A stretch of 32,000 nucleotides of DNA from Nitratidesulfovibrio vulgaris str. Hildenborough. GTDB lineage: Bacteria > Desulfobacterota > Desulfovibrionia > Desulfovibrionales > Desulfovibrionaceae. Position 1 is the stretch's first letter; every line of letters begins with the position of its first letter. The stretch is taken from positions 1,800,001-1,832,000 of the forward strand of contig NC_002937.3 in NCBI RefSeq assembly GCF_000195755.1. The letters are read 5' to 3'. Positions 6,284-22,870 of this stretch are shown here, piece after piece. The notes below the pieces were generated by a model. The model was not told the origin of the DNA, did not search any database, and saw only the letters and a list, made by a program, of their open reading frames with translations. The position numbers and the translations under genes were made by a program.

Positions 6284-6317
6284 GCGGCACGAAGCCCCCC
6301 TCCCCCCAAAAACAGAA

Positions 6318-6342
6318 AGCCCCGCTCAAGCGGGGCTTCTTC
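6318..6342. terminator. Bidirectional terminator between brnA and the convergent HTH gene
   Basis: AGCCCCGC-tcaa-GCGGGGCT, flanked by AAAAACAGAA upstream and TCTTC downstream. Confidence 0.6.
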
Positions 6343-6610: not shown

Positions 6611-6808
6611 CTAGCCTTCCTCGATGCCCACGACCCGCGTCGCCTCGATGAACGCGCGCAACTGTTCGGCCTCCACGCGGTAAAGCGGCTTGCGCACCGT
6701 CCCCACGTTGCTGGCCACCAGTTGCCCGGTGCGGATGAGTGCCCGCACTCGCTTGGCGTCCAGCGCCAGTGCGCGCCCCACCTGCCTAACCGTGAGCATG
6801 GTCTCCAT
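6611..6808 (-). CDS. Excisionase-family HTH DNA-binding protein
   Basis: METMLTVRQVGRALALDAKRVRALIRTGQLVASNVGTVRKPLYRVEAEQLRAFIEA. This is the in-frame tail of track ORF 6611..7156. Its start (6808 or 6799) overlaps the recombinase stop at 6786-6788. Confidence 0.55.
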   Translation of the reverse strand: METMLTVRQVGRALALDAKRVRALIRTGQLVASNVGTVRKPLYRVEAEQLRAFIEATRVVGIEEG

Positions 6809-7430
6809 GCAGCACCTCCCCGATGTGCAGTACGGCGGCCCGCACCCTTTCGTTGCGGAACGCGAGATAGGCCGTGGTGCTCTTGGGGTCTGCGTGCCCC
6901 AGCGCCTTGACCACCTCGTAGAACGGGTCGACGGGTTCGCCCGACGCCACCCGCGCCAGCATGAACTCGTAGACCATGTTGGCGAAGGTCTTGCGCAGGG
7001 CATGGCACCCCACCTTGCCCACGATGCCCACCGACCCGAACGCCTCCTGCAGGATGCGCCACGCCGTCTCGCGGCGTATGGGCCGGTTGCGGGCGTTGCG
7101 CGACCGAAAGAGAAAGGTGTCCACATGCCACGACCCGGCAGCGTGCAGCGCGTCAATCTGCCGCCAAATGGCCTGACGCGCCACGGGCGCGAGATACACG
7201 GTGCGGCCCTCGCGCTTGCCCTTCATGGCCCTGCGCGGCACAGCCACCTCACGCACTACCAGCCTGCCGCGCACTACATCGCGAATGCGAAGCGACAGCA
7301 TCTCCGAGATGCGGAACCCCGCGTTCACGCCCAGCACGAACAGGCAGTGGTTGCGTACGGCGTGGTAGCCACCAAAGGCACGGGATGCCCGGCGCACCTC
7401 GTCCAGCGTCAGCGGTCGGCAGCCCTTCAT
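6786..7430 (-). CDS. Minimal tyrosine recombinase (catalytic domain only, 214 aa)
   Basis: NAGFRISEMLSLRIRDV (Arg I), HALRKTFANMVY (H-x-x-R), LGHADPKSTTAYL (His/Tyr region). There is no N-terminal core-binding domain. RBS-like AGGGGA lies upstream of the ATG at 7430. Confidence 0.75.
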   Translation of the reverse strand: MKGCRPLTLDEVRRASRAFGGYHAVRNHCLFVLGVNAGFRISEMLSLRIRDVVRGRLVVREVAVPRRAMKGKREGRTVYLAPVARQAIWRQIDALHAAGSWHVDTFLFRSRNARNRPIRRETAWRILQEAFGSVGIVGKVGCHALRKTFANMVYEFMLARVASGEPVDPFYEVVKALGHADPKSTTAYLAFRNERVRAAVLHIGEVLHGDHAHG

Positions 7431-7450
7431 GCGTTCCCCTGCTGCGATTC

Positions 7451-7479
7451 TTGACCCACAATATGCAAAAGACTATGAA
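7451..7479 (+). promoter_or_regulatory. Possible sigma70-type promoter for the Abi-like gene
   Basis: TTGACC (7451-7456), 17-nt spacer, TATGAA (7474-7479). About 35 nt upstream of the RBS AAGGAAG (7505-7511). Confidence 0.25.
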
Positions 7480-7513
7480 TCCTGTTCATTTTCATATCGC
7501 CTTCAAGGAAGTC

Positions 7514-8563
7514 ATGATGGACACGCAGACGCAGCAGCCCCCCGCAGCGAACAGCGGCGACGCGAAGAACACTAGCACCCCCAAGAGAATAAAAGCCTTG
7601 GTAGCGTGGTGGAAAAGCATCGCCAAACTGGTAGCCATTACGATTGTCGTCATCTTTTTAGCCACTATCATCTGGCTCTGCGGAGCACTCGCCACGCACC
7701 ACGGCATCTTCAATTCTAAGGTCAGCTTCGGTGAGTTGGAACAACTCGAAAACACCTTCTCCCCCGTGAATGCCTTCTTCGCTGGTCTCAGCGGCATAGG
7801 CATCATCGTGACCCTCTTCCTGCAACAGACTCAGATATCTGGAGCCAAGAAAGATGCGGAAGAGAATAACGGTAGACTTGAAAAACAACTCACAATTACG
7901 CAAGAACAATTTAAATTAGAAAGATTTGAAAGCATTTTTTTTAACCTACTATCAATACACAACGAAAATTCTAGAGAAATAAGGAATAGTAATTTTAGTT
8001 TTATCAGCCTCGTAAACGATTTAGGAAGTGCAAAAAAAGGACACAATTCACTTTATCAGCAGATCAAAAGCCTAGATGATGCAATAAATTTTATTCCATT
8101 ATCAAAAAAAGAAGCAGCAAAATTCGAATTTGATGAATATTTCAACACAACTGACTACACGATATGCATATTTGCAAGGATATACAAGCAGCACAAGAAT
8201 TCAATTATGCACTACTACAGACACCTCTACCACCTCATCAAATACACTAACAAAACGTTCGACGACGCCCCCGAAAAACGTCGACTCTACATGCGTATCA
8301 TCAGGGCACAATTCACGGCTGCGGAGCACGTAGCTCTCTTTTACAATGCCCTCTACTATGCCGACCCAGAAGACAGAAACGAAGCCCAAGCAGCCGGACA
8401 GCCCGCCCCCGAAGGGCAGCAAGAGAGCACGACGACGCCAGCCAGCAAATTCAAGCGGCTCATTGAACGAAATGAGCTACTGCACGAGATGGACAAGTCC
8501 ATGCTCATCTACCCAGAAATACACGAACATTTTTACGACAAAAAAGCCTATGGCGACGATTAA
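7514..8563 (+). CDS. AbiC-like putative abortive-infection membrane protein
   Basis: Track ORF 7385..8563 trimmed to the ATG at 7514/7517 behind AAGGAAG. Two N-terminal hydrophobic helices (LVAITIVVIFLATIIWLCGALA; FFAGLSGIGIIVTLFL). Then FESIFFNLLSIHNEN and HYYRHLYHLIKY...RIIRAQFTAAEHVALFYNALYY, which I recognise as the putative-AbiC family pattern. Confidence 0.55.
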   Translation: MMDTQTQQPPAANSGDAKNTSTPKRIKALVAWWKSIAKLVAITIVVIFLATIIWLCGALATHHGIFNSKVSFGELEQLENTFSPVNAFFAGLSGIGIIVTLFLQQTQISGAKKDAEENNGRLEKQLTITQEQFKLERFESIFFNLLSIHNENSREIRNSNFSFISLVNDLGSAKKGHNSLYQQIKSLDDAINFIPLSKKEAAKFEFDEYFNTTDYTICIFARIYKQHKNSIMHYYRHLYHLIKYTNKTFDDAPEKRRLYMRIIRAQFTAAEHVALFYNALYYADPEDRNEAQAAGQPAPEGQQESTTTPASKFKRLIERNELLHEMDKSMLIYPEIHEHFYDKKAYGDD

Positions 8564-8577
8564 CACCCCGCCCTGCC

Positions 8578-8979
8578 TCACTGCACCCACGACGGCCTCC
8601 GGCCCTCGTTCAGCGCAGCCCGCAACTCGCGCACCCGCGCAAGGTTGCGTTCGCGCATCTCGTCGGTGATTTCCATCGGCTCATCCCCGGTACGCTGCTG
8701 GTCGAGTTGCGCCCGCACCACCGCCATACGCCGCGCCTCCTGCAATCGCTCGTGCGCCGTGCGAATGTCCGCGCTCGTGGGCCAGAACCGCGAATGTGCC
8801 CGCGCCTCGTCCACCGCGTCGTCGAACTCGCCGCAGGTCATGGCCCGGCAGTCCTTGGCGTAGTCTTCCGCTAGCACATCGATGCTCTCTATCTGCCGCG
8901 ACCGCGGATAATGCAGCGCCAGTCGCACCAGCGCGGCCCGCACATGTGCGGCGGTCAGTTTCAGGTCTCTGGCGTTCAT
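8578..8979 (-). CDS. Hypothetical phage protein (possibly replication-associated)
   Basis: 133-aa ORF whose start is ATGA-coupled to the upstream replisome-organizer-like gene. No diagnostic motif recognised. Confidence 0.45.
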   Translation of the reverse strand: MNARDLKLTAAHVRAALVRLALHYPRSRQIESIDVLAEDYAKDCRAMTCGEFDDAVDEARAHSRFWPTSADIRTAHERLQEARRMAVVRAQLDQQRTGDEPMEITDEMRERNLARVRELRAALNEGRRPSWVQ

Positions 8980-9947
8980 GCGCGCACCTCCTTCTGCTTG
9001 CGGGCCTCCTCCAGCAACCGCGAATACGTATCCGGCTCTCGCCCGGCGTCAGATGCCGCTCCCTGCACGTCGTCCACGTCCGGCGACTTGAGCCACCACC
9101 GTTCGGCAAGGAACCGCTTCAGCCCCGGCGCATAGCCACGCTTCCAGCGCGGTGTCTCGCCCCACTCCTCGATGGCCTGTGTGATGCGTGCCAGCCCCGG
9201 CCACACCCGCCCGGCGCGGAGCATCTTGTACGCATCATGCCCGGCAAGCGGAGCCTCGCAGCGGGCAAGACGGTCGTACAACTCGCGCAGTTCGAGAAAC
9301 TCCATGCTCGCGTCCAGCGCACCGTCGAGCACGTCGGGCGCTTCCGGCTCCACCCTGTCGCCCGACCACTCTTCGGCCTCATGGTGTTCAGGGCAAAGCC
9401 CGTCCCCACCCTCGGGCACGTCTACACGCGCCCGCGCGCGACCTTCGTTCACTGTACTACCTTGGGGTGTAGTATTCTTACTTCTTAACTTCTTAGGAGA
9501 AGGAAGAGGGGTTGACGAACCGTTCCACGCTTTTTCCACGCAATCCAACGCTTCGTTGCGATTCGTTTCCGTGCGGTTGAGCTTGCGCTGCCTACGTGCT
9601 TCGGCTGAGGCCTTCCCTGCTACCGAAGCCGCGACCCTCCGCGCCTCACTGCCTGAAACCCACGGGTTGTGCTCCTCCCAGTCATGCAGGCGAAGCCCCT
9701 CCGCATCTTCGTCAATCCACAGGCCAAAGCAGGTGGCAAAGAACCTCCCCTCTTCCCCCTCCCATCCAGCGGCTAGCTCCACGTCTTCACCATCCATACC
9801 CCGCAAGTTGCCATCAGGCCGATTCTGCGCCGCCCATATCCAAAGGACTTGAAGAGCCATCACGCCCTCAAGACCTAACCGCCTGATTGTCTTCTTTGTC
9901 TTCGGGTGTTGCCAGAAACCGACGGAAATGCGTATGTCCGTATTCAC
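8976..9947 (-). CDS. Phage replisome-organizer-like protein
   Basis: Track ORF 8976..10070. I prefer the GTG at 9947, preceded by GAGGAG (complement of 9957-9962) with a 9-nt spacer. The N-terminus FWQHPKTKKTIRRLGLEGVMALQVLWIWAAQNRPDGNL...ELAAGW...FFATCFGLWIDE resembles Phage_rep_org_N-type domains. Weak assignment. Confidence 0.4.
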   Translation of the reverse strand: MNTDIRISVGFWQHPKTKKTIRRLGLEGVMALQVLWIWAAQNRPDGNLRGMDGEDVELAAGWEGEEGRFFATCFGLWIDEDAEGLRLHDWEEHNPWVSGSEARRVAASVAGKASAEARRQRKLNRTETNRNEALDCVEKAWNGSSTPLPSPKKLRSKNTTPQGSTVNEGRARARVDVPEGGDGLCPEHHEAEEWSGDRVEPEAPDVLDGALDASMEFLELRELYDRLARCEAPLAGHDAYKMLRAGRVWPGLARITQAIEEWGETPRWKRGYAPGLKRFLAERWWLKSPDVDDVQGAASDAGREPDTYSRLLEEARKQKEVRA

Positions 9948-9989
9948 TGTTTTGAACTCCTCGCCATAACTCAACACCAAGGAAATCTC

Positions 9990-10328
9990 ATGCCGGAAAC
10001 AAAACTCGAACTGCCACACAGACCCGCAACGACCATCACCTACGAAGATGACTGGGTGTACATCCAGCAAACGGGCGCATCAGGAGACGTTGATCGCGTC
10101 GCACTGCATTCGGATGACCTTCAAACCATCATTGATTTTCTATGCGACATAGCTGGATTGGAGACTCTCGCCCCTAGCTGGCACTCTCCTTGCGTTGCCG
10201 TTGCTGGCCCTGCCTGTCCGCAGGGCCTTTTTGCTGGCCTACTTCACAGTCCCCCCGGCACGGCCTGTTGCCCCACGCCCACCCGCGCGGGCATCGGCCT
10301 AGCCCCTCCGGGCTTGTGGCCTGTCTGA
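9990..10328 (+). CDS. Hypothetical small protein (end uncertain)
   Basis: ATG at 9990 behind AAGGAAA. The first ~65 aa look protein-like. The C-terminal part is low-complexity and runs through a terminator-like hairpin at 10206-10232. Confidence 0.25.
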   Translation: MPETKLELPHRPATTITYEDDWVYIQQTGASGDVDRVALHSDDLQTIIDFLCDIAGLETLAPSWHSPCVAVAGPACPQGLFAGLLHSPPGTACCPTPTRAGIGLAPPGLWPV

Positions 10329-10416
10329 AATGCGGGCAGTCACGATGCCTCATGCCCAATCCGCCTTTGACGCCACACATCGACCACGGTATCTGCACAT
10401 AGAAAGAGGACTCTCC

Positions 10417-10656
10417 ATGCTACAGGCCGTCACCTATGCCGAGGCCCGCCAGAGGCTTGCGGCCATTATGGACAACGTGTCCGACTCCCATCAGCCAACC
10501 ATCATCACGCGCTACAAGGCGCGACCAGTAGTCTTGATGTCGTTCGACGACTACAACAGCATCATGGAGACGGCACATCTGCTTCAGTCTCCCGCCAACG
10601 CCGCACGTCTCCGCGCATCTCTCGAAGCTGTCAGCACAGTTGATAAGCAGAGCTGA
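10417..10656 (+). CDS. Phd/YefM-family antitoxin (no cognate toxin adjacent)
   Basis: MLQAVTYAEARQRLAAIMDNVSDSHQPTIITRYKARPVVLMSFDDYNSIMETAHLLQSPANAARLRASLE. RBS AAGAGGA at 10404-10410. Confidence 0.8.
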   Translation: MLQAVTYAEARQRLAAIMDNVSDSHQPTIITRYKARPVVLMSFDDYNSIMETAHLLQSPANAARLRASLEAVSTVDKQS

Positions 10657-11491: not shown

Positions 11492-12031
11492 ATGCGCTAC
11501 CCAGAGGGTATGGCTTTACAAAACAAATTTCCGATACTTTGGGATTGTTTCCTTCAGCGCATCAATGACGCGCTCAAGGCGACCACGCAGGAAGAGCTTG
11601 GCCGTCGTCTTGGCGTTGGAAAGAGCGCAATCACCAAATGGCGTCATGGCAGCACCAGAGGGGCCGACCTTCAGGACTTCCTCAGGTATTGCGATGTACT
11701 CGGAATTGATTTTTGTGGAATCATCAACGGCACTCCGACACCGACGTATTCACCGTCACCGTTCGAGATAGCCCTTACCGGAGTGCTGGACAGCTTTCTC
11801 TCCGTCCACAACCTCACGCACGAAAAAGCCGCTTCAAGCCTCTGGCCTGAAACGGCGAACGGTGCAGCCAAACTAGGGAGCATACTCACTGCGAAAGAGC
11901 CACTCACCCCTGAAGTGCTCATGCAGCTGTGCTTGCTGATGGAAGAAGACCCCGGCAAACTGCTGCGCCTTGCCCGTGAACGCGTCCAGCCGGAAGGTGA
12001 GCAAATATCCGGCAACGCCAAGTCCGCTTAG
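11492..12031 (+). CDS. CI-like XRE-family HTH regulator
   Basis: TQEELGRRLGVGKSAITKWRHGSTRGADLQDFLRYCDVLGIDF. RBS AAGGAAA is followed by a 5-nt spacer. Confidence 0.6.
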   Translation: MRYPEGMALQNKFPILWDCFLQRINDALKATTQEELGRRLGVGKSAITKWRHGSTRGADLQDFLRYCDVLGIDFCGIINGTPTPTYSPSPFEIALTGVLDSFLSVHNLTHEKAASSLWPETANGAAKLGSILTAKEPLTPEVLMQLCLLMEEDPGKLLRLARERVQPEGEQISGNAKSA

Positions 12032-12173: not shown

Positions 12174-12199
12174 GCCCCCGTCAGGGGGGCTATTTTTTT
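12174..12199 (+). terminator. Rho-independent terminator upstream of the dcm operon
   Basis: GCCCCC-gtcag-GGGGGC followed by TATTTTTTT. Confidence 0.7.
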
Positions 12200-12265: not shown

Positions 12266-13375
12266 ATGAAGCAGCACACGCCCAAACATACGCCCGCCAA
12301 AGCGGTCGACCTCTTCTGCGGTGCGGGGGGGTTCAGTCTTGCCGCCCGCAATCTGGGTATAGAGGTCGTTGCCGCACTTGAGAACAACCACTATGCTGCC
12401 GCGACATACCGCCATAACTTCATAGAAGGCTCCCGCCGCCCCCCCCTGCTCTTTGAGGGCGACATTCTGGCCATATCGCCAGAAGCCTTCATGCAGGCTG
12501 CAAACCTCACTCCCGGCGGAGTCGATATCATCATGGGCGGCCCTCCCTGTCAGGGTTTTTCCACGCATCGCATCAAAGGGGCAGGGATAGACGACCCCCG
12601 CAACACGCTGCTTCTGCGTTACTTCGAATATGTGCAGGCCATTCGCCCGCGCTATTTTCTTGTCGAGAATGTGCCCGGCCTACTTTGGCCTAGGCACGAA
12701 GAGTACCTGCAAAGATTCTACAAACTGGCTACAGAGGCAGGCTACCATGTCTCTCCACCGCAGGTGCTCAACGCACGCGATTATGGCGTTCCGCAAAACC
12801 GAAAGCGCGTTTTCATTCTCGGCACAGCTGGGGGGCACACTCTGCCAGATTGGCCCCCACGCCCCACACACTTCGCCCCTGAAAGCTCTCAGGTTCGTGC
12901 AGAGGGTCTCCCTGCTTGGTGTACAGCAGCACAAGTTTTCGCCACTGAACTGGCAAACGACGACCCAAACGCCATACACCTCAACCATCGTCCAGAAATG
13001 GTAGAGGTGTTCCGCAGCACCCCGCTCAATGGTGGCAGCCGGCAGCAATCATGCCGCGTTCTTCCCTGCCACCGGAATCATAACGGTCATAAGGATGTAT
13101 ACGGCCGCATCAACCCCGACGCTCCCGGCCCGACCATGACCACAGCTTGCACCAATCCTTCCAAGGGGCGCTTTCTTCACCCTACGCAGCACCACGGCAT
13201 CACAGTGCGTCACGCTGCTCGCTTTCAAACCTTTCCGGAGACGTTCACCTTCAAAGGTGGCATCATGGCTGCCAGCGCACAGGTGGGCAATGCTGTGCCC
13301 ATAGACCTTGGCATGGCTGTCATACGCCCGCTACTAAGCGCTTTACCCGCCTGCATAGCACGCCAAAGTCAGTAG
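12266..13375 (+). CDS. dcm: DNA (cytosine-5)-methyltransferase
   Basis: Motif I DLFCGAGG, motif IV GGPPCQGFS (Cys95), motif VI FLVENVPGL, motif VIII QNRKRVFILG, TV dipeptide (GITVRHAARFQTFPETFTFKG), motif X GNAVP. Confidence 0.95.
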   Translation: MKQHTPKHTPAKAVDLFCGAGGFSLAARNLGIEVVAALENNHYAAATYRHNFIEGSRRPPLLFEGDILAISPEAFMQAANLTPGGVDIIMGGPPCQGFSTHRIKGAGIDDPRNTLLLRYFEYVQAIRPRYFLVENVPGLLWPRHEEYLQRFYKLATEAGYHVSPPQVLNARDYGVPQNRKRVFILGTAGGHTLPDWPPRPTHFAPESSQVRAEGLPAWCTAAQVFATELANDDPNAIHLNHRPEMVEVFRSTPLNGGSRQQSCRVLPCHRNHNGHKDVYGRINPDAPGPTMTTACTNPSKGRFLHPTQHHGITVRHAARFQTFPETFTFKGGIMAASAQVGNAVPIDLGMAVIRPLLSALPACIARQSQ

Positions 13376-13415: not shown

Positions 13416-16361
13416 ATGTTGAACACAGCCAGCTTCCAGACACGCGCCCGGGCCATAGACCACCTAGGCCGTGGGCAGATAGCAGACGCCCCCACCGCCA
13501 TCAGCGAACTATGGAAGAACGCCTACGACGCATACGCCCGAGGCGTTGAACTACACATTCACTCTGGCAACGTCGTCGTCGCCTCTATCTGCGACAATGG
13601 GCACGGCATGGATGCCGAGACCCTTAGCTCGAAATGGCTTGTGGTTGGCACAGAGAGTAAAGTCGCCTCTCCCGTCCCTGTAGAAGACCGCTTCGGTCTG
13701 CCAGAACGTGCCCGACTTGGTGAAAAGGGCATCGGCCGGCTTTCCGCTGCTTTTCTGTCTCCCGTCACACTTGTTGTCAGCAAACGCGTAGGGCAGCCCT
13801 ATGCTGCCCTGCTTGTAGACTGGCGCTTCTTCGAGAACCCATACCTGTTCATCAACGACGTTAGGTTCCCCCTTGTCGAATTCGGAGAACTTAAAGAGTT
13901 TCCTGCGTTGTTTGCGCAGATGTTCGAAGAACTCAAAGCCAATCTGCAATGGGGCTCAGCCTCACCCCATACCGCCCACCTCGCTGCCGCATGGGACAGG
14001 TTCGACGCCATAGAACGCGAACAAAACCCCAATGCCCCCACAACCCGAGAAGCCATTCTGTCACTCTCCCCTGAAGGGCTCATCAAATGGGACCACTTCT
14101 CTCCTTGGTGGCAGTTGATGCACAAGGCAGTAGAGGGTGACGACGTACACGGCACCGCACTTTTTACTATCGGCGCGAATACCGAACTTGCATGCTGGGT
14201 CACTGACGACGAATATGAAAGCCCAGATATACAAAAGGTCAAAGAAACTCTGACCGAAACACTGGTCAGTTTCGTCGACCCGTTTGAAGACACTCCCATC
14301 GCCTTCGACTATGCCGTAGTCGTTCACAAACCCGGCAAAGCTGACTTCATTCCCGTTTCTTCCGAAGAAGTTTTTGACATCCAAGAGCTTCGTAGCCTCG
14401 AACATGTCATCGAAGGCGAATTTGACACCGCTGGCAACTTTCAGGGCAGAATAACGGCTTTCGGCAAAGACCGTGGCGAATGCTTTCTGCCATCTCCATC
14501 AGTTTTCACACAACGTGGCAAGGATAGCGTCGGGCCATTCAGGTTTTGCCTTGGCACGTTTGAGCAAGACAAAAAGAACACTACACACTCAGACGAAGAA
14601 TTCGAGTATCACTCGAGTCAAGTTAATAAATATGGCGGGATATGCATCCACCGTGATGGTCTCCGGGTCATGCCCTATGGGCGTGAGGATGGGGACTTAT
14701 TTAGGATGGAATTCCGCCGTTCAAAACATGCTGGACGAGAGTTTTTTGTCTATCGCCGCAGCTTCGGTCGTTTGGCGATTACCAGTCAGCACAACCCCAA
14801 CCTCAAAGATAAGGCTGGCCGTGAAGGACTGGTTGTCAACAAAGCCCGCCGTGAATTCGAACGACTTGTCATCAATCTGTTGATGTATGTTGCACGCGAA
14901 TATTTTGGAACGGCATCCACTATCCGCAATCAAGAACTCCCTGGCATTCAGAAGGCACGCCAAAGGCAGATGCGGGCAGCAGAAACGGCCCGCAAGCGCA
15001 ACCAGAAGAATTTCGTCCGGGCACTCAAAGAGAAGTTACCCTTGGCGCTTGAAGCCAGCACGCGGGCAGAAGCCGGGGCTGACAAACTGGAACAGACCCT
15101 AGCATGCAAAGCGTACGACGACCTGCCTGCCATCAAGATGGAACTCGACGCATTGCAGGGGCTGCGCGACGACCTGCGCATCCCCAACCGCCCAGATGAG
15201 CTTGGTAGCCAAGAAGAAGACTATAGAAGATACCGCGATGCCTATGCCTTGTTCTGCGCCACCATTGACAAGCTCAAGTCCATGCTCGCCCGGTGTGAGG
15301 CAGAAGGTCTGCTAGGCGACCCTAAACGTATCGCCACATCAAAGTTCTATAGCAACGAAGCGCGCATCTCCAGCCAGATAGGCAAAGCCCTGTCTACCAT
15401 CACCTCTAGCCTAGATGCGCTACGCACCACATGGGAAGAGAACGCCAGAGAAGACAGAACGGCGTACCGGCGCAAGTCCACGGAATTCGTCAGCATGCTC
15501 GAAGCTGGGCAAGGCTTGACCCCGGTACTCGACTACCTAGACAAAGTACACACCGAACTCAGTGACGAACTGAACCTCAAATACGACGGCATCATCCATA
15601 GCCTAGAACAACTCGTCGAAGGTGTAGACCTTGAAGGTGCCTTCTTTCATGTAGATGAGGTGAACCGGTCGCTTGAAGAAAAAGTATCCATGCTCAACTC
15701 TGTGGCACAACTCGGCATCAGTGTCGAAATCATCGGCCATGAGTTAGAAGCACTCGAATCTCAGGTCACGCGCTACCTCAAACTTATGCCCAAAGAGGTG
15801 CGCGCCCTCAAAAGTTACACCCTTGCGTTCGAAGCGCACCGTGCCCTTGTAGACCGACTGCGATTTCTGGCACCTCTGCGAAAAACTTCGTACCGCAGCC
15901 GCATCGCCATCTCGGGTAAAGAGATTGCCAAGTACGTCAAAGAGTTCTTCGGCACCACATTCGAGCAATGCCGCATCCAGTTCGAAGTTACCCCTGCGTT
16001 TGAAGGTTTCTCCATCAGAGACCTACCATCCCGCATCTACCCCACCTTCATCAACCTTGTGAACAATGCTCTCTACTGGGTGCAACGTGGTGAAAGAAGG
16101 ATAATCCGCCTCGACTTTGTGCAAGGCAAAGCCATTGTCGCAGATAGCGGACCGGGTGTTGATGAAGACGACCAGAAGCACCTGTTCGAATTGTTCTTCA
16201 CAAAACGAACCAACGGGCGCGGTGTGGGGTTATACCTCTGTCGCGAAAACCTTGCAGTTGCCCGCCACAGCATCCGCTACGCAACAGATAATGACCCCGA
16301 AGTCCTCGAAGGGGCTAACTTCATCATCGAATTCCACGAGGTTGAACATGTCTCCCGCTAA
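13416..16361 (+). CDS. Double-GHKL protein: N-terminal MORC/HATPase_c_3-like ATPase fused to a C-terminal histidine-kinase core (no TM or known sensor domain)
   Basis: N-terminal Bergerat motifs: ELWKN35AYDA, D60NGHGMD, G102EKGIGRLS, and later GGICIHRDGLRVMPYG (as in prokaryotic MORC-like proteins). A coiled-coil-like middle follows. C-terminal kinase boxes: H-box SVEIIGH775ELEAL, N-box NLVNN884ALYW, G1 D910SGPGVD, F-box FELFFT, G2 G934RGVGLYL. Confidence 0.75.
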   Translation: MLNTASFQTRARAIDHLGRGQIADAPTAISELWKNAYDAYARGVELHIHSGNVVVASICDNGHGMDAETLSSKWLVVGTESKVASPVPVEDRFGLPERARLGEKGIGRLSAAFLSPVTLVVSKRVGQPYAALLVDWRFFENPYLFINDVRFPLVEFGELKEFPALFAQMFEELKANLQWGSASPHTAHLAAAWDRFDAIEREQNPNAPTTREAILSLSPEGLIKWDHFSPWWQLMHKAVEGDDVHGTALFTIGANTELACWVTDDEYESPDIQKVKETLTETLVSFVDPFEDTPIAFDYAVVVHKPGKADFIPVSSEEVFDIQELRSLEHVIEGEFDTAGNFQGRITAFGKDRGECFLPSPSVFTQRGKDSVGPFRFCLGTFEQDKKNTTHSDEEFEYHSSQVNKYGGICIHRDGLRVMPYGREDGDLFRMEFRRSKHAGREFFVYRRSFGRLAITSQHNPNLKDKAGREGLVVNKARREFERLVINLLMYVAREYFGTASTIRNQELPGIQKARQRQMRAAETARKRNQKNFVRALKEKLPLALEASTRAEAGADKLEQTLACKAYDDLPAIKMELDALQGLRDDLRIPNRPDELGSQEEDYRRYRDAYALFCATIDKLKSMLARCEAEGLLGDPKRIATSKFYSNEARISSQIGKALSTITSSLDALRTTWEENAREDRTAYRRKSTEFVSMLEAGQGLTPVLDYLDKVHTELSDELNLKYDGIIHSLEQLVEGVDLEGAFFHVDEVNRSLEEKVSMLNSVAQLGISVEIIGHELEALESQVTRYLKLMPKEVRALKSYTLAFEAHRALVDRLRFLAPLRKTSYRSRIAISGKEIAKYVKEFFGTTFEQCRIQFEVTPAFEGFSIRDLPSRIYPTFINLVNNALYWVQRGERRIIRLDFVQGKAIVADSGPGVDEDDQKHLFELFFTKRTNGRGVGLYLCRENLAVARHSIRYATDNDPEVLEGANFIIEFHEVEHVSR

Positions 16362-18114
16362 TGCTGCAATCATCGATGAAGCCTACATATCCCCCATCAA
16401 AAGCATACTTTTTATAGACGACAAATTTCCAACTCACGCAGACTTGCTCAAGAAATCGCTCACCACCGACACAGAAGAAGAGCATATTGAAGCAAACCTG
16501 CGCGATATTGCTACTGAAAACCAATTTGACCATGAAGAAGACAACACTCACAATGGAAATATAGACATCGAAGAAATACAAGAAGAACATGACCGTAGTA
16601 TAGATGAGCATGTCCTACGATTAACACAATCTTGCAGGGAAAATGGCTACATATTTGACGTAGAAAACAACCTCGAATGCATCGAAAGAGATGAATATGC
16701 TTTTATAAACAAATCAGACCTTGTTGTGCTAGACTACTTCCTAACAGAAGGTGAAGATTCATCTCACGCTCTTAAAATAATACATAGCCTTGCACAATCA
16801 AAAAGATACAATCTAATTATCGTCCATTCTACAAAAGAAAAACAAGACGTTGCATCTGAGATTTTATTCTCAATGAAGAATATTACGTATGAAAATACCG
16901 AACGCGAAGAACTCGCGAATGCCGCTGCTATAGAAGCTATTGTCAATGAAAACATACGTCATATACTAGACGGCTCAGAAGAACATATAAAAACGATATG
17001 CAGCCTTGCTGGTTCAGCATCAAAAGAAAAGGTCATTTATTTCACAAATCAAATAATTAGTAATAATTTTCGGAGTACAACAAAATCTAAATCTGACCTC
17101 GTCTTACAAAGCGATATCGCTTCAAGCACCACTCCATGGATAGCTGCAAAAAATGCTTTTATTGTTGTCACACAAAAAGATATAGCTTCTGAACAAGACA
17201 TCAATAACCTCATACAAGAGCTGAAAACTGCGCTTACGGAATACGACCCGGGAATCATCACAAAGGCACTACATAAATTTGCAAATATATCAAAAGAAAA
17301 CATTTACGAGATTCTTAACTCATCATTCTCAACACCAGAAATCCGTGCTGCGGCACTATTAACAGCCCTTAACGGAATTTCAAGCATAGAGACACATCCT
17401 CACAAGGCTAACATTATCGCAAATAGAATCACACATGCCATACTTTCTGCAGCAAGCACAGGCATTGCATCTAAAGCAGACCAGTTTTGCATAAACTGCA
17501 TTGACTCGCTACAAATAGAAAATGAAGCCACAATCCATAGAGCTTGCACTACTGCTGAGAACGCAAACTGCACCATGGATAAAATCTTCCTTCATGCAAA
17601 CGCCATGGCTTGTTGCGAACAAAAACCTCACCACTACATAACTACAGGCAGTATCTTTACGCAGGAAGACAAATCATGGATGTGCGTAACACCATCGTGC
17701 GACCTGGCTCGAGGTGAAGACTTTAACGCAAGCAAAATAATATTTATAGAAGCCATTAAGCTTACTAAAATTACTGATAGCAACAGAATAGCAAAGGCAC
17801 TCAAAGATGCTCATAAAGGGTTATATATTTTTGTAAAGACTACGACAGGCGTAGATGTGTACTCTCCATACAACGATAGTAAACCGAATCTACACATTGA
17901 TAACTTTTTTATTCGTGGAACAACATTTCTCACCATTGACGACACTATAAGGCTATACACGGTTGAAGCTGACGAAGTGGGATATTCCGTCATGTCTCAA
18001 CAAAGCAACGTCATTGCTCAACTCAGGCCAGACTACGCAAGCAGATTCCTGTCAGAAAAAGGCGCGTGGAAATCCCGCATCGGGGTCGACTTCTTTCAGT
18101 ATAAACCAGAGTAG
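16348..18114 (+). CDS. Receiver (REC)-like domain protein with acidic insertion and uncharacterised C-terminal domain
   Basis: Track ORF 16117..18114 trimmed to the ATG at 16348, a 14-nt overlap with the upstream stop at 16359-16361. SILFID24D25KFP, DLVVLD129YFL and NLIIVHS161T162 reproduce the REC acidic pocket, phospho-acceptor and Thr/Ser positions. aa 30-95 form a D/E-rich insert. aa ~175-588 have no motif I recognise. The gene is strongly AT-rich. Confidence 0.6.
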   Translation: MSPANAAIIDEAYISPIKSILFIDDKFPTHADLLKKSLTTDTEEEHIEANLRDIATENQFDHEEDNTHNGNIDIEEIQEEHDRSIDEHVLRLTQSCRENGYIFDVENNLECIERDEYAFINKSDLVVLDYFLTEGEDSSHALKIIHSLAQSKRYNLIIVHSTKEKQDVASEILFSMKNITYENTEREELANAAAIEAIVNENIRHILDGSEEHIKTICSLAGSASKEKVIYFTNQIISNNFRSTTKSKSDLVLQSDIASSTTPWIAAKNAFIVVTQKDIASEQDINNLIQELKTALTEYDPGIITKALHKFANISKENIYEILNSSFSTPEIRAAALLTALNGISSIETHPHKANIIANRITHAILSAASTGIASKADQFCINCIDSLQIENEATIHRACTTAENANCTMDKIFLHANAMACCEQKPHHYITTGSIFTQEDKSWMCVTPSCDLARGEDFNASKIIFIEAIKLTKITDSNRIAKALKDAHKGLYIFVKTTTGVDVYSPYNDSKPNLHIDNFFIRGTTFLTIDDTIRLYTVEADEVGYSVMSQQSNVIAQLRPDYASRFLSEKGAWKSRIGVDFFQYKPE

Positions 18115-18136
18115 CACATACCCCTCGAATCGATTC

Positions 18137-18162
18137 CTGCCCCGCTCCGGCGGGGCTTTCTT
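18137..18162 (+). terminator. Rho-independent terminator ending the dcm operon
   Basis: CTGCCCCGC-tccg-GCGGGGC-TTTCTT. Identical 26-mer to 19505-19530. Confidence 0.7.
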
Positions 18163-18242
18163 CTTCCTATTCCTGCTGCAATTTTACTAAATCGTCTTTC
18201 TTGTATATCCATATCTGCACACCATCTATGACAGGTGCTCCT

Positions 18243-19118
18243 ATGGGTATTTCCGCACTCTTCCTGTTCTGTCTCATTCTTGGTGGCGGCTTCTACGCCG
18301 GGGTTCAGTGGCAACAACAGCGCACACCTCCCCGTGTGCCTCCCGCGCAGCCCGCGCCCCCTTCATACTCACCCCCACCCTACCTCGAAGACCAACCGCC
18401 CCCGCGCCGACAGCCAGCCCGACGCAAGGCAGACTGGCCATCCTCTTCTAGCCGTCAAACAGAACCAGAACGCTACGAGGCCAAGCTGCGAAGCGACCCG
18501 GTGTTGCTCAACACACTTAAGGCCGAACTTATGGCACGAGAGCACCACCTCATGCGGGTGCTCAACAACTTCATCGAGGGCAACACAGGCCAGCACATGC
18601 AGGCCGACCCGTTCTACCTCTACCCAGAGATTGCCAGCACCAGCCCGGAAGAATTCCTCAACACGCTGGGCACACGCCTTCAGCACACCAACTTCCCCGA
18701 CCTAGCCGACGACGGTAAGGGGTGGGTCTATGTTCTTGCAAACTATGCCATGCCCGGTGTGGTCAAAATCGGCTATTCCACAAAGCCAGCCCTACGCGCC
18801 GCAGAGCTATCCGTCTTGCGCACCGTAGATGAGAACGGGCTTAGCGTGACCAACCGGACATCACTCCCCCGCCCCTTCAAGCTCCAATTCTGTGTGTTGC
18901 GCCCTAACGCTCGCGCTTCAGAGCAGTACATCCATGAACTGCTCGCCCCCTACAACATACGGGAAGAAGGAGGTATGGCAGGTACGGAGTTCTTCGCCCT
19001 GTCAGTAGAGCAAGCTTACGACGCGCCCTACTACACCTTCCCAGATGAAACCTTCCACTTTGCCGCCTTTCACGACTCATGTTTCTTCTTCGGTAGAAAG
19101 GACGACACATTACAGTGA
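18243..19118 (+). CDS. Membrane-anchored T5orf172/MUG113 (GIY-YIG-related) domain protein
   Basis: N-terminal hydrophobic helix ISALFLFCLILGGGFYAGV, then a Pro-rich linker. The C-terminus has GWVYVLANYAMPGVVKIGYSTKPALRAAEL ... SEQYIHELLAPY ... GTEFFAL, typical of the T5orf172 domain. Start uncertain (TTG 18201, ATG 18228 or ATG 18243). Confidence 0.6.
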   Translation: MGISALFLFCLILGGGFYAGVQWQQQRTPPRVPPAQPAPPSYSPPPYLEDQPPPRRQPARRKADWPSSSSRQTEPERYEAKLRSDPVLLNTLKAELMAREHHLMRVLNNFIEGNTGQHMQADPFYLYPEIASTSPEEFLNTLGTRLQHTNFPDLADDGKGWVYVLANYAMPGVVKIGYSTKPALRAAELSVLRTVDENGLSVTNRTSLPRPFKLQFCVLRPNARASEQYIHELLAPYNIREEGGMAGTEFFALSVEQAYDAPYYTFPDETFHFAAFHDSCFFFGRKDDTLQ

Positions 19119-19146
19119 ATCTTTAAATATGAATTAGGAGGTGCTT

Positions 19147-19467
19147 ATGAATCTTTATGATCGTTTTTTTAACGGAGAAATTCAATTGTGGAAAACGTAT
19201 TGGATTGGATTAGTTGCCGTCAACGTCATCACCCAACTCATTATTAAAATATTGTCCAACGCAAATGCTAATTTTATGCTGATATTGATCATGAGCATAT
19301 CACTGCTCCTATGGTCAGCAGCAGCCTTAATTGCCACATGGAGAAGCGCAAAAAAGTATACAGGTTCTATTTATTTCAAATCATTAGCACAAATCGCTGT
19401 TGTATTTGGGTGGATATCTCTTTTCGCAAACTGCAGCGCAGTGCTTGTATATTTTAAAAATCAGTAG
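19147..19467 (+). CDS. Small hydrophobic protein (about 3 TM helices), AT-rich
   Basis: AGGAGG at 19136-19141, 5 nt before the ATG at 19147. Hydrophobic segments: TYWIGLVAVNVITQLIIKIL, FMLILIMSISLLLWSAAALIA, IAVVFGWISLFANCSAVLVYF. Confidence 0.55.
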   Translation: MNLYDRFFNGEIQLWKTYWIGLVAVNVITQLIIKILSNANANFMLILIMSISLLLWSAAALIATWRSAKKYTGSIYFKSLAQIAVVFGWISLFANCSAVLVYFKNQ

Positions 19468-19504: not shown

Positions 19505-19530
19505 CTGCCCCGCTCCGGCGGGGCTTTCTT
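19505..19530 (+). terminator. Rho-independent terminator (second copy of the 26-mer)
   Basis: CTGCCCCGCTCCGGCGGGGCTTTCTT, identical to 18137-18162. Confidence 0.7.
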
Positions 19531-20240: not shown

Positions 20241-20334
20241 CCTCACGCGCCGCACGCTCTGCGCCGTCGCCATGCTCGCGGCCCTGTTCTGCCTCTATGC
20301 CGCTGGCGACGCTCTCTCGGGGAATGCGCTGTGA
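20227..20334 (+). CDS. Possible 35-aa hydrophobic peptide
   Basis: My translation is MQQHSLTRRTLCAVAMLAALFCLYAAGDALSGNAL. Its stop overlaps (GTGA) the GTG start of the next gene. Too short for the ORF track. Confidence 0.25.
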   Translation: MQQHSLTRRTLCAVAMLAALFCLYAAGDALSGNAL

Positions 20335-20738
20335 CCCGCGAAGAGTTCGACGCTGCGTTCGACCGCATCTACAGCATCACAGAGACGACAACACAGGTCG
20401 CGTTGTCAGAGGTGCTCGGCATCCGGCAATCCAGCGTGTCTGATGCACGCAAGCGCAACTCCATCCCTGGGGCATGGCTCGTCACGCTGGTCGACCGTTT
20501 CTCCGCAAACCCGGCGTGGATCCTCACAGGCGAGGGGCCACGCTACCTGCTGCCCAGCGACTCGCGCGACGAGATGACCCTCTCAGAAGAGACAGTCGCG
20601 AAGATACGCGCCGAAGCCATCGCAGAGGGCCGACGTGCCGCCATCAACGACCTGAATACGGATGACGTCTTTACGCTTGTGCGCGAGCGCCTGCCGCAGG
20701 GCACGGTGCTACGCTACTCAGGCGAGGTTACGGCATGA
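20331..20738 (+). CDS. Phage CI-repressor-type HTH protein
   Basis: TQVALSEVLGIRQSSVSDARKRNSIPGAWLVTLVDRFSANPAWILTGEGP matches the Phage_CI_repr pattern (kR..iP..W......g.np.WlltG.G). Confidence 0.6.
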   Translation: MTREEFDAAFDRIYSITETTTQVALSEVLGIRQSSVSDARKRNSIPGAWLVTLVDRFSANPAWILTGEGPRYLLPSDSRDEMTLSEETVAKIRAEAIAEGRRAAINDLNTDDVFTLVRERLPQGTVLRYSGEVTA

Positions 20739-21371: not shown

Positions 21372-21635
21372 ATGCAACAGACGCAAGACCAGTTCGACGA
21401 AGCAGTCACCAAGGCATTCCGCGATGCGGCGGAAACACAGCGCATCCTGTCCTTGCCCTACATCACTGCCACAGAGGCAGCCAAGGTCTACCCCATCGGC
21501 AAGTCCACGCTCGACAAGATGCGCGCCAAGAGGACGGGCCCCGTGTACTTCCATGTCTCCGGCAAGGCCAACGCCTTTTATACCCACGAAGACATCCGCA
21601 CGTGGCTCAACAAGCATCGTCAGCGGGTGATGTAG
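21372..21635 (+). CDS. Excisionase/AlpA-like HTH protein
   Basis: YITATEAAKVYPIGKSTLDKMRAKRTGPVYFHVSGKANAFYTHEDIRTWL. GAGGA RBS. Its 3' end is convergent with and overlaps the integrase. Confidence 0.6.
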   Translation: MQQTQDQFDEAVTKAFRDAAETQRILSLPYITATEAAKVYPIGKSTLDKMRAKRTGPVYFHVSGKANAFYTHEDIRTWLNKHRQRVM

Positions 21636-22728
21636 GCAACTCGGGCAGCAACGCCATCGCGTCGTGTTTCGTGTCCGGAGATAGCTTCGAATACCGCTTC
21701 GTCATCTCAAGCGATGAGTGCCCCATCAATACGGCTATCGTATAGAGGGGCACTCCTCGTTGGGCGAGCCACGAACCGAACGTGTGCCGCAACGTGTGAA
21801 AGACGACCTTGTGCCGGGCATCTGTCACGCCGTCGTTGAAAAGCTCATCAGCAACGCGCGAGAACACGGACGAGATGTATCGAACCCTTCCGCCACCTCT
21901 CTGTACGAAGACGAATTCCTTCGCATCCCGGCCAGCGCATCTGGCAGCGAGTATCTCTTTCACACCAGCCGTCATATAGGCGGCCCTCGTGCCCGCCTTC
22001 GCGTCCATGACGTCGATGACCCCGTCCGCCACGTTCACATGCCCCACCTGTAGGCCCAGCACCTCGCCAAGCCGCATGCCGGTGTAAAGAGACAGGTACG
22101 CGATGTCGTGCCACTGACGGCTGCGCCTGTGGAGTGCGTGCAGCAGGCTCGCCGCCTCCGCCTCGGTCAGAAAGCGGAGACGCGCCGCATCGACCTTGGG
22201 CATCTCCACCCCGTCGGTCGGGCTCGTGCCGGTGTAGATGCCCCACGCCACGCACTTCCTGTAGACCTGCCGCACCAGCGCGATTGCATGTCGTATCGTC
22301 TGTGGCGACCGCCCCTTCTCCGCCATCGACCGCTTGAGCTCCTCGATGTGGATGGGCTTGATCCTGTCCATCTTCGCATCCCCGAAGAGAGGGGCGATGT
22401 GGTGCTCGAAGTACCCTCGCATGTGACTTTCAGACGACTTGCCTTTGGCATGAACCGTCAAGTATCGCTCCAGGGCATCGCGAAAGACAGGCATCTCGTC
22501 GCGTGCGATGAACCGCCCGGCCTCGACCTCCTTGACCCGCTCAGCCCGCACACGAGCGGCATACGCGGCGTTGACGCCTTCGCTCTTACGCCCTATTGTC
22601 TCCCACACTTTCTTGCCGCCATGGCGGTAGGCTATGTCGAAGGCGATGTCCTGCTTGCCAGACACCCGGTGAATCACGAGTCTTTCGTATACTCCCGGAT
22701 ACTTAGTAGAGCTTCGCTGACTGGCCAT
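21607..22728 (-). CDS. int: Tyrosine integrase (phage integrase family)
   Basis: Full two-domain architecture. LYTGMRLGEVLGLQVGHV (Arg I), FHTLRHTFGSWL (H-x-x-R), LMGHSSLEMTKRYSKL (His...Tyr). Start moved to the ATG at 22728 behind GGGAGGA (the track starts at 22749). Confidence 0.9.
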   Translation of the reverse strand: MASQRSSTKYPGVYERLVIHRVSGKQDIAFDIAYRHGGKKVWETIGRKSEGVNAAYAARVRAERVKEVEAGRFIARDEMPVFRDALERYLTVHAKGKSSESHMRGYFEHHIAPLFGDAKMDRIKPIHIEELKRSMAEKGRSPQTIRHAIALVRQVYRKCVAWGIYTGTSPTDGVEMPKVDAARLRFLTEAEAASLLHALHRRSRQWHDIAYLSLYTGMRLGEVLGLQVGHVNVADGVIDVMDAKAGTRAAYMTAGVKEILAARCAGRDAKEFVFVQRGGGRVRYISSVFSRVADELFNDGVTDARHKVVFHTLRHTFGSWLAQRGVPLYTIAVLMGHSSLEMTKRYSKLSPDTKHDAMALLPELPTSPADDAC

Positions 22729-22870
22729 AGGTTCCTCCCGTGCTACCACCCTGCTACCACACGATGGAATTCCGGGGCAATGCGGGGAACCGCAAGAAAA
22801 CGTAACAACCTGTTATCAAAAGAATTGAACACACGAAGACGGTACAGGAATCAGCTGAAAACGGCCTTTA

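Follow-up and report, generated by a model that had tools for sequence, protein, structure and literature searches.

A MORC-like ATPase/histidine-kinase fusion in a mobile three-gene operon of Nitratidesulfovibrio vulgaris Hildenborough: a candidate sensor of a proposed methylation-marked defence cassette

What could a cytoplasmic histidine kinase respond to when it carries a second ATPase at its N-terminus and is encoded next to a DNA methylase gene? This question is raised by DVU1747, a gene found in a 32,000-nucleotide (nt) stretch of Nitratidesulfovibrio vulgaris str. Hildenborough (assembly GCF_000195755.1, contig NC_002937.3, positions 1,800,001 to 1,832,000 of the forward strand). The whole of this stretch is referred to below as the window, and all coordinates are given in its numbering. 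An earlier note made from the letters of this DNA had proposed that a MORC-like GHKL ATPase and a complete histidine-kinase core are joined in one polypeptide, and this architecture was borne out by profiles, motifs and Foldseek comparison of an AlphaFold2 model, which agreed with one another. Within a horizontally mobile operon of three genes, DVU1747 occupies the middle position: it is preceded by the gene of a Dcm-type methylase (DVU1746) and followed by that of a receiver-like protein (DVU1748). These two partners, which the earlier note did not mention, hold most of the functional information.

The product of 981 amino acids (aa) was identified by exact match as AAS96224.1, WP_010939035.1 and UniProt Q72B89 of Nitratidesulfovibrio (Desulfovibrio) vulgaris Hildenborough. 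Its gene is a program-listed open reading frame (ORF) with an ATG start, 6 nt upstream of which lies a Shine-Dalgarno-like AGGA, and an RNA value for it is given in a proteomic-prediction table. The following parts were distinguished in the protein:

13416..16361, + strand: DVU1747, MORC-like ATPase/histidine-kinase fusion, 981 aa
13416..13895, + strand: GHKL (Bergerat) ATPase core, aa 1-160 (HATPase_c_3; alpha/beta core in the AlphaFold2 model)
13896..14306, + strand: helical insertion, aa 161-297 (AlphaFold2 secondary structure), variable in the family with a median identity of 31%
14307..14840, + strand: beta-rich S5-like transducer, aa 298-475 (AlphaFold2 strands at aa 298-455)
14841..15620, + strand: charged helical linker, aa 476-735 (seven predicted helices of 14-62 residues)
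15621..15899, + strand: helical hairpin of the dimerisation and histidine-phosphotransfer (DHp) type, aa 736-828, with His775 in the H-box EIIGHELEAL (HEF_HK; AlphaFold2)
15900..16358, + strand: kinase catalytic (CA) GHKL domain, aa 829-981 (HATPase_c; alpha/beta domain at aa 830-975 in the AlphaFold2 model)

Three Pfam families were matched by DVU1747, each above its curated cut-off: HATPase_c_3 (PF13589; aa 27-139, 3.2e-12), HEF_HK (PF19191; aa 765-827, 1.7e-5, 25.6 bits against a cut-off of 24.1) and HATPase_c (PF02518; aa 872-974, 1.2e-15). When positions were checked in the 981-aa translation, every motif that the earlier note had quoted was located at its place:

aa 31-39: ELWKNAYDA
aa 60-66: DNGHGMD
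aa 102-110: GEKGIGRLS
aa 407-422: GGICIHRDGLRVMPYG
aa 515-540: RQRQMRAAETARKRNQKNFVRALKEK
aa 772-780: IIGHELEAL, the H-box (the His775 codon is nt 15738-15740)
aa 880-888: NLVNNALYW, the N box
aa 910-916: DSGPGVD, the G1 box
aa 924-929: FELFFT, the F box
aa 934-941: GRGVGLYL, the G2 box

The conservation of these motifs was assessed in an alignment of 58 full-length homologues with 43-93% identity. Residues E31, N35, D38, D60, G62, G64, G102, K104, G105, G107 and K466 in the N-terminal half, and H775, E776, N880, N884, D910, G912, G914, F924, F927, G934, G936 and G938 in the C-terminal half, were invariant in all 58. It was thus confirmed that the domain and motif observation lies far beyond chance. 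The absence of membrane and accessory input segments, also claimed from the letters alone, held as well: no PAS, GAF or HAMP domain was found by Pfam scan at E<=0.1, and the top 19-aa window reached 1.11 on the Kyte-Doolittle scale, at which no transmembrane helix is expected.

The structure of DVU1747 was taken from an AlphaFold2 model built on 58 homologues, with a mean predicted local distance difference test score (pLDDT) of 82.7. The N-terminal core, aa 1-160, is the most conserved region of the protein (median pairwise identity 61%). It contains motif I, E31-x3-N35-x2-D38, with a hydrolase-type Glu, motif II, D60-x-G-x-G64, and motif III, G102-x-K-G-x-G107. Among NCBIfam models, that of the BbrUII/HgiDII restriction enzyme (NF050001) matched aa 12-135 at 1.7e-16, and MutL matched at 6e-5. 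A single-sequence search of the PDB with aa 1-760 returned only marginal MutL matches (E ~0.04), and a structure-based search was therefore needed for the N-terminus. Foldseek comparison of the model with the PDB supported the proposed N-terminal GHKL fold with a probability of 1.00 over about 500 columns. The best matches were the SMCHD1 ATPase module (6mw7, E 1.3e-10), MORC2 with DNA (9cdh, 9cdj), MORC3 (5ix2, 6o1e) and MORC4 (7k7t), with GRP94 and PMS1 ranked lower.

These alignments of about 500 columns to GHKL+S5 modules support, in the predicted structure, an S5-type transducer directly downstream of the GHKL core. The transducer carries the invariant block YRDGLRVMPYG...NPNLKDKAGREG, which includes K466, and its invariant residues are R413, D414, R417, P420, Y421, G422, D427, E432, R435, D465, K466, R469 and E470. 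K466 is presumably the lysine that senses the gamma-phosphate. The Pfam MORC S5 model gave no match in a Pfam scan of DVU1747, and sequence identity to MORCs in the Foldseek alignments was 10-14%. At this identity DVU1747 is filed as MORC-like or paraMORC-like and not as a MORC proper.

The two modules are joined by the long charged stretch that the earlier note had described, aa 515-540 of which lie within a predicted helix of 62 residues (aa 502-563). The linker, aa 476-735, is the least conserved region of DVU1747, with a median identity of 25%. Beyond it, His775 was found in a helix of the kinase type, as had been proposed: in the model, a 51-residue helix (aa 739-789) is followed by a helix at aa 799-818 and then by the alpha/beta domain. 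With a probability of 1.00 over about 235 columns, Foldseek matched this part to the DHp+CA cores of CpxA, ZraS, HK853, YycG and the YF1 photoreceptor kinase. In a sequence search of the PDB, the C-terminal 253 residues matched ThkA (3a0t) at 1.1e-8 and LvrB at 4.5e-5. The CA boxes are N880-x3-N884 (N, kinase-type), D910-x-G-x-G914 (G1), F924/F927 (F) and G934-x-G-x-G938 (G2). In the GHKL superfamily, the Glu of E-x3-N is the general base of the hydrolysing GHL ATPases (MutL, GyrB, Hsp90), and Asn at this position marks kinases. Judged by these residues, both Bergerat modules of DVU1747 appear to be catalytically intact, and they differ in type, the N-terminal one being a hydrolase-type and the C-terminal one a kinase-type module.

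The operon to which the kinase gene belongs comprises the following features in addition to DVU1747:

12174..12190, + strand: terminator-like hairpin GCCCCC GTCAG GGGGGC with a T-run, 3' of the upstream helix-turn-helix (HTH) gene (consensus match only)
12266..13375, + strand: DVU1746, C5 DNA cytosine methyltransferase of the Dcm type, 369 aa (Pfam DNA_methylase 1.4e-59)
16348..18114, + strand: DVU1748, receiver-like protein, 588 aa (Pfam Response_reg_2, PF19192, 2.7e-17)
18139..18156, + strand: strong terminator-like hairpin GCCCCGC TCCG GCGGGGC with TTTCTTCTT, 25 nt 3' of DVU1748

The hairpin at 12174..12190 is likely the 5' boundary of the transcription unit, and that at 18139..18156 its likely 3' end; terminator-like matches within the operon are weaker (3-4 G-C pairs) than these two. 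DVU1746 and DVU1747 are separated by 40 nt. The end of DVU1747 and the start of DVU1748 share 14 nt, and the ATG of DVU1748 is preceded by GAGG at a distance of 6 nt. The methylase matched NCBIfam dcm at 1.9e-48 and PADLOC MTase_II at 4.8e-80, and its motifs are intact: FCGAGG (aa 17), PPCQ (aa 93), ENV (aa 134), QNRKR (aa 177) and GNAVP (aa 341). A methyltransferase is thus present with no recognisable nuclease domain of a restriction endonuclease, and DVU1746-1748 is not filed as a classical type II restriction-modification (R-M) system.

DVU1748 corresponds to AAS96225.1 and Q72B88, its locus name having been assigned from gene order, and the protein was confidently detected by proteomics (PMC2685097). 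Its receiver (REC)-like part, aa 1-290, carries D24, D25, D129 (nt 16732-16734), S161 and K277, whose conservation was determined in 113 diverse members of the family:

D24: 112 of 113 members
D/E25: 110 of 113 members
D129: 113 of 113 members
T/S161: 113 of 113 members (Ser in DVU1748)
K277: 113 of 113 members

The acidic pair, the phospho-acceptor Asp, the Thr/Ser and the Lys of receivers are thus all retained in the family. D129 and S161 are 32 residues apart, against 30 in CheY, in which the corresponding residues are D57 and T87. When the family was aligned by hhalign with six canonical receivers, a probability of 64% (E 6.4e-5) was obtained over beta3-beta4 only; in this alignment D57 of CheY was paired with D129, and T87 with position 161. 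The receiver-like domain contains two large insertions, and PF00072 was weakly touched by 4 of 78 family members in a Pfam scan.

The C-terminal domain of DVU1748 (aa ~291-588) has invariant N418, G434, C451 and R577 and nearly invariant C446, D452, Y563 and D581. An AlphaFold2 model of aa 290-588 had a pLDDT of 66 overall, and its beta-rich part, aa ~410-575, was mostly at 73-91 with two short dips (57, 64). When the domain was compared with the kinase profile by hhalign, the probability was 0.1%. The domain was considered as the missing nuclease, and Foldseek, Pfam, PDB and hhalign searches gave no relationship. A PD-(D/E)xK reading of the segment 'PSCD...EAIK' was abandoned: conservation is lacking at E468, a basic residue occupies position K/R471 in only 79 of 113 members, and the Foldseek matches include no nuclease. 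A portable effector combined with other sensors was also dismissed, as nearly all of 612 clusters (50% identity) consisted of proteins of 550-680 aa with the domain in the same position, and the shorter ones were fragment-like. Judging from these searches, the C-terminal domain appears to be an orphan confined to its own family.

The distribution of the cassette was studied by a profile scan of one genome per species, which yielded 178 loci; counts out of 80 given here refer to the best 80 of the 178 (L001-L080). These belong to Alpha-, Beta-, Gamma- and Deltaproteobacteria, Planctomycetota, Acidobacteriota, Verrucomicrobiota, Chlorobiota, Gemmatimonadota, Deinococcales and Myxococcota, with one genome of Paceibacterota (candidate phyla radiation). 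The family is large, with thousands of relatives, and full-length homologues with 38-46% identity occur across at least 8 phyla. A receiver-like gene lies immediately downstream of the kinase gene on the same strand in 79 of the 80 loci, the exception being a contig end. The kinase/receiver pair is adjoined by a Dcm gene in 75 loci, upstream in 62 and downstream in 13. Clustering of 1,406 flanking ORFs revealed two other recurrent families, Vsr (37 loci, mostly with the gene directly downstream) and HNH_2 (6 loci); no Vsr gene was found in the window. In 59-63 of 68 loci, the G+C content (GC) of the cassette lay 7-9 points below that of its distal flanks, which agrees with the expectation for mobile DNA.

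Some observations on relatives of the two conserved enzymes may be added. Among the 62 upstream methylases, 51 form one Dcm lineage in which the variable region (median identity 59%) is no less conserved than the core (53%), which hints, as far as sequences can tell, that one target sequence may be shared across phyla by this lineage. Other Dcm types are represented by the remaining 11 upstream methylases, as well as by 12 of the 13 genes located downstream. A truncated copy of the kinase (equivalent to aa 372-977, 41% identity) is carried by the E. coli prophage records AJ304858.2 (CP-1639) and LN997803.1 (phi467). One of these records annotates it as 'remnant integrative element / histidine kinase-like protein', the other as 'SasA', and PHROG family phrog_8137 is built on such fragments. 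In the phage records, nothing but this truncated remnant adjoining prophages was found. A Citrobacter copy gave no match in complete E. coli genomes by megablast.

Co-variation was analysed in 53 loci with homologous upstream methylases. Among these, the kinase had a median pairwise identity of 41%, the receiver protein one of 25% and Dcm one of 55%. When Dcm was controlled for, kinase identities still co-varied with those of the receiver protein (partial Spearman correlation 0.83), in line with a tight co-evolution of the two. A contig from a sediment metagenome, L081, carries a cassette nearly identical to that in the window: its Dcm protein was 100% and its T5orf172 96% identical, and the flanks were 98-100% identical at the nucleotide level. 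Two patches diverged, one at nt 14100-14990, in the transducer region of the kinase (69-93% nucleotide identity), and one at nt 16790-18140, covering most of the receiver gene (52-83%). In this comparison the receiver gene had a GC of 0.39, against 0.53-0.58 in its neighbours. The mosaic indicates that the receiver allele was probably swapped by recombination under an unchanged methylase.

We assign a probability of about 0.5 to the following reading of DVU1746-1748. The three genes would form a defence cassette marked by methylation, and its MORC-like clamp, when loaded with DNA, would drive a His-to-Asp phosphorelay that ends at an uncharacterised effector. According to this reading, the host's own DNA would be marked by the DVU1746 methylase. 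The MORC-like module of DVU1747 would dimerise on ATP and close around DNA, and its dwell time or hydrolysis cycle would differ on unmarked, foreign DNA. The state of the clamp would be relayed through the helical linker and reach the DHp helices, as happens in ordinary sensor kinases, and the CA domain would then phosphorylate His775. The phosphoryl group would be transferred from His775 to Asp129 of DVU1748 and would switch on its C-terminal domain, which would act on the invading DNA or on the infected cell. DNA sensing by the N-terminal ATPase is suggested by its structural resemblance to MORC-type modules together with the adjacent methylase. Indirect support for the predicted autophosphorylation and transfer comes from invariant His775, invariant Asp129 and the co-variation of kinase and receiver. 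The reading as a whole is favoured by the architecture, the operon and its conservation across loci, the co-variation, the mobile and defence-type surroundings, and the precedents of GHKL-gated nucleases and Detocs; a comparable but less specific proposal had been made in the family paper of 2021 (PMC8011034).

A number of results weigh against this reading. Scans of DVU1747 and DVU1748 with Pfam, NCBIfam and PADLOC, and of 78 members of the DVU1748 family with Pfam, revealed no nuclease family, and the invariant residues of the DVU1748 C-terminal domain do not form a metal-dependent nuclease signature. Foldseek returned no relative for the model of aa 290-588 (best E 0.044 in the PDB and 0.041 in BFVD, query template-modelling score <=0.20); Pfam scans of the 78 members gave nothing consistent for this domain, and a profile search of PDB sequences gave chance matches to sigma factors. 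Most of the 80 loci contain no recognisable nuclease, Vsr being a repair enzyme, and beyond Vsr and HNH_2 the clustering of flanking ORFs revealed no gene present in more than 6 loci. DVU1748 is likely a receiver, an assignment drawn from the name of its Pfam family, from its pattern of residues and from an hhalign match of modest probability; the profile of its family found no receiver in a search of PDB sequences. The cassette contains no region recognised as reading sequence or methylation. Beyond shared ancestry, the receiver did not track the methylase in the 53 loci (partial correlation 0.04 with the kinase controlled for), and neither did sub-regions of the kinase and receiver when compared with the methylase variable region (partial correlations -0.13 to 0.11). 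In L081, the receiver protein was only 67% identical to DVU1748 despite the identical Dcm protein. The lack of methylase tracking should be taken as uninformative and not as a negative result: identity over whole regions is a crude proxy, and the pairs compared lack independence. Lastly, no experimental or functional study of any family member was found in the literature searched for the family, its accessions and MORC-type phage defence.

Abortive infection of the Detocs type was considered as an explanation of the same genes. The MORC-like module would sense a phage protein or a replication intermediate, the receiver would be a general killing or growth-arrest effector, and the methylase would be a passenger or would protect against a different activity. 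That a kinase and a REC-effector protein can be a stand-alone defence is known from Detocs itself (bioRxiv 10.1101/2023.01.24.525353), and the effector domain of DVU1748 is an orphan without nuclease features. Moreover, the receiver gene is the fastest-evolving one (median 25%, against 41% for the kinase) and has recombined between near-identical cassettes, which is typical of an arms race. However, a Dcm gene adjoins the pair in 75 of 80 loci across phyla, which would not hold for a passenger, no buffer receiver resembling DtcB is present, and the PADLOC matches are to models of Type II restriction enzymes at the kinase N-terminus only. This explanation is therefore regarded as unlikely.

Two further explanations were considered. 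In the regulatory one, which involves no restriction or killing and was favoured in a paper of 2021, a two-component system would control the methylase or other genes through a DNA-binding or other regulatory output of the receiver protein, as in epigenetic switching. Its domain logic is that of signalling systems, most loci contain no nuclease, and the pair has been proposed to control R-M systems 'directly or indirectly' (PMC8011034). Yet the C-terminal domain of DVU1748 contains no HTH or other known output domain detectable by Pfam or PDB sequence searches, and most loci offer no other conserved gene to regulate. A hydrolysing MORC-type clamp would also be a costly sensor for simple gene control, and the cassette is patchily distributed, low in GC and carried on islands, which suits selfish or defence elements and not housekeeping regulators. 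We consider this explanation quite unlikely. Alternatively, the genes could be accessory to repair: the MutL-like ATPase and Vsr would correct T:G mismatches arising from deaminated Dcm 5-methylcytosine, and the kinase and receiver would signal damage. MutL stimulates Vsr in E. coli, Vsr is the sole other recurrent gene besides the rare HNH_2, and weak MutL profile matches were obtained at the N-terminus of DVU1747. But Vsr is missing from over half of the loci, the window included, and accompanies Dcm genes generally, so that no link to the kinase is needed; the structural matches are nearer to MORC and SMCHD1 than to MutL, and the phosphorelay and the orphan effector would be left unexplained. 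A role in repair is accordingly very unlikely.

Returning to the methylation-marked cassette, it is tentatively proposed that the trio could represent a distinct modification-dependent immunity, in which restriction would not be the work of a nuclease joined to or paired with the ATPase. It would be carried out by an effector of unseen fold, licensed by a His-to-Asp phosphorelay that a DNA-entrapping MORC-type clamp fires on unmethylated DNA. The invariant Asn, Cys and Arg of the effector would possibly point to cysteine-based chemistry. If true, a signalling step and kinetic proofreading would be placed between recognition and attack.

The cassette is part of a composite integrative element or mobile defence island. 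The T5orf172 gene downstream was rejected as a member of the cassette: it lies behind the terminator-like hairpin and is absent from all 80 genome loci. It occupies 18201-19118 (+) and encodes a T5orf172/MUG113 (GIY-YIG-like) protein with a hydrophobic and proline-rich N-terminus that matches the PADLOC candidate PDC-S57; it is a separate transcription unit, kept solely in the near-identical relative L081. A small hydrophobic ORF of 108 aa follows it at 19141-19467 (+). The 26-nt terminator-like hairpin CTGCCCCGCTCCGGCGGGGCTTTCTT occurs twice, at 18139-18156 after DVU1748 and at 19507-19524 after the next gene pair, and a degenerate copy with 73% identity lies at 6317-6342, after the PD-Lambda-4 region. 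This hairpin may be a repeated terminator or an element of the repetitive extragenic palindromic type that marks module boundaries of the island.

Located 7 kb upstream of the cassette, the ORF at 2141-5941 (+) encodes a 1266-aa protein that is a full-length match to PADLOC PD-Lambda-4_A (E = 0, 1052 bits), a component of a known anti-phage system. No PD-Lambda-4 partner was found among its scanned neighbours, and a small BrnT-toxin ORF follows PD-Lambda-4_A in a public annotation of the same locus (L083). Genes near the cassette encode an AbiC/AbiP-like protein, a phage replication-initiation-like protein (phrog_9474) and a Phd/YefM antitoxin without an obvious toxin. Regulators of the HTH_3 (Cro/C1-like) and CI-repressor HTH types, a full tyrosine integrase and an integrase fragment are also encoded in the island. 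The coordinates of this gene set are 6786-7430 (-), 7385-8563 (+), 8976-10070 (-), 10330-10656 (+), 11492-12031 (+), 20331-20738 (+) and 21607-22749 (-). No tRNA gene and no clear attachment-site (att) repeats were found at the island in the window.

How DVU1747 relates to known systems can now be stated. It shares with the HisKA-type kinases (CpxA, HK853, ZraS, ThkA) a DHp hairpin with His-Glu and the N, G1, F and G2 boxes, in agreement with the structural and sequence matches. In contrast to them, it has a DHp hairpin that falls into a separate Pfam family and in which the HisKA Pro following the H-box is missing; there is no membrane, PAS, HAMP or GAF input, and the presumed input is a second, hydrolysing GHKL module located about 700 residues upstream.

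MORC and paraMORC ATPases with GHKL+S5 modules were described by Iyer, Abhiman and Aravind in 2008, who found prokaryotic paraMORCs in R-M operons with Dcm and Vsr (PMC2292703). DVU1747 has in common with MORC, SMCHD1 and paraMORC proteins an N-terminal GHKL domain with intact ATP motifs and an S5-like transducer. It differs from them in its low identity to MORCs and in the missing match to the Pfam MORC S5 model. Moreover, paraMORC1-5 as described contain no kinase core, and their C-terminal additions are RecB-type nucleases, TIR domains and other extensions. If a phosphorelay links a MORC-type DNA clamp to an output, the cassette would offer a tractable bacterial model for the reading of DNA state by MORC and SMCHD1.

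Gating of nucleases by GHKL ATPases is known from restriction and Shedu systems (PMC2292703; VcSduA, PMC12137116), and defence by VcSduA, a paraMORC3 of Shedu type I-D, needs both the ATPase and the nuclease (PMC12137116). The N-terminal GHKL of paraMORC3/Shedu and BbrUII/HgiDII proteins is homologous to that of DVU1747 (NF050001 1.7e-16; PADLOC REase_II 3e-12), and control of a downstream effector by the ATPase is a logic to which that of DVU1747 may be likened. However, the BbrUII/HgiDII match is limited to the ATPase core and lies far under the family cut-off (59.9 against 550 bits). In these systems the nuclease is fused to the ATPase, whereas in DVU1747 a kinase core is fused and the putative effector is a separate protein that would be reached by phosphotransfer.

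In Detocs (DtcA/DtcB/DtcC; Rousset et al. 2023), a His-to-Asp phosphorelay has been validated as an anti-phage defence for which both the His and the Asp are required (bioRxiv 10.1101/2023.01.24.525353). A cytoplasmic kinase with a non-canonical sensor and a REC-effector partner are found in both systems; the likeness is one of logic only, and DVU1747 is not a member. Detocs has a tetratricopeptide-repeat (TPR) sensor, the DtcB buffer receiver, usually a PNP ATP-nucleosidase effector and no methylase, and no second receiver gene is present in the DVU1746-1748 operon. No match to Detocs models was obtained with PADLOC v2.0.0, the Detocs content of which was unchecked; it reported REase_II at the kinase N-terminus only and nothing for DVU1748. 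If the proposed mechanism is true, the cassette would be a second, mechanistically different case after Detocs of two-component signalling as immunity.

The closest counterpart is the 'two-component-system-like' HEF_HK/Response_reg_2 family (PF19191, PF19192) reported by Bellieny-Rabelo, Pretorius and Moleleki in Genome Biol Evol in 2021 (PMC8011034). Its 'group 1' proteins, with HATPase_c_3, HEF_HK and HATPase_c, are soluble and, with 174 of 222 sequences, make up the commonest form; a kinase of this kind is found no more than three genes away from 91.6% of the Response_reg_2 genes, and C5 methylases and Vsr are enriched near HEF_HK genes (PMC8011034). The family probably branched from paraMORC ATPases, and the N-terminal HATPase_c_3 was proposed as the sensor of a pair that would control R-M systems (PMC8011034). 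DVU1747 shares with group 1 the conserved His and acidic residue (H775, E776), both ATPase domains, the lack of transmembrane segments, the downstream Response_reg_2 gene and the upstream C5 methylase, and nothing essential differs. It is therefore an annotated member of a known family, in its commonest form, and the suggestion of the earlier note that its input logic is unusual has been overtaken, since the same architecture had been published with Pfam models of its own (PMC8011034). DVU1747 adds no new kind of system; its interest lies in the inferred mechanism, in the orphan effector domain and in the host, a genetically tractable model organism. To the account of 2021 are added the structural match of aa 1 to ~500 to MORC and SMCHD1, the recurrence of Vsr alone beside the trio, and the orphan C-terminal domain of the partner.

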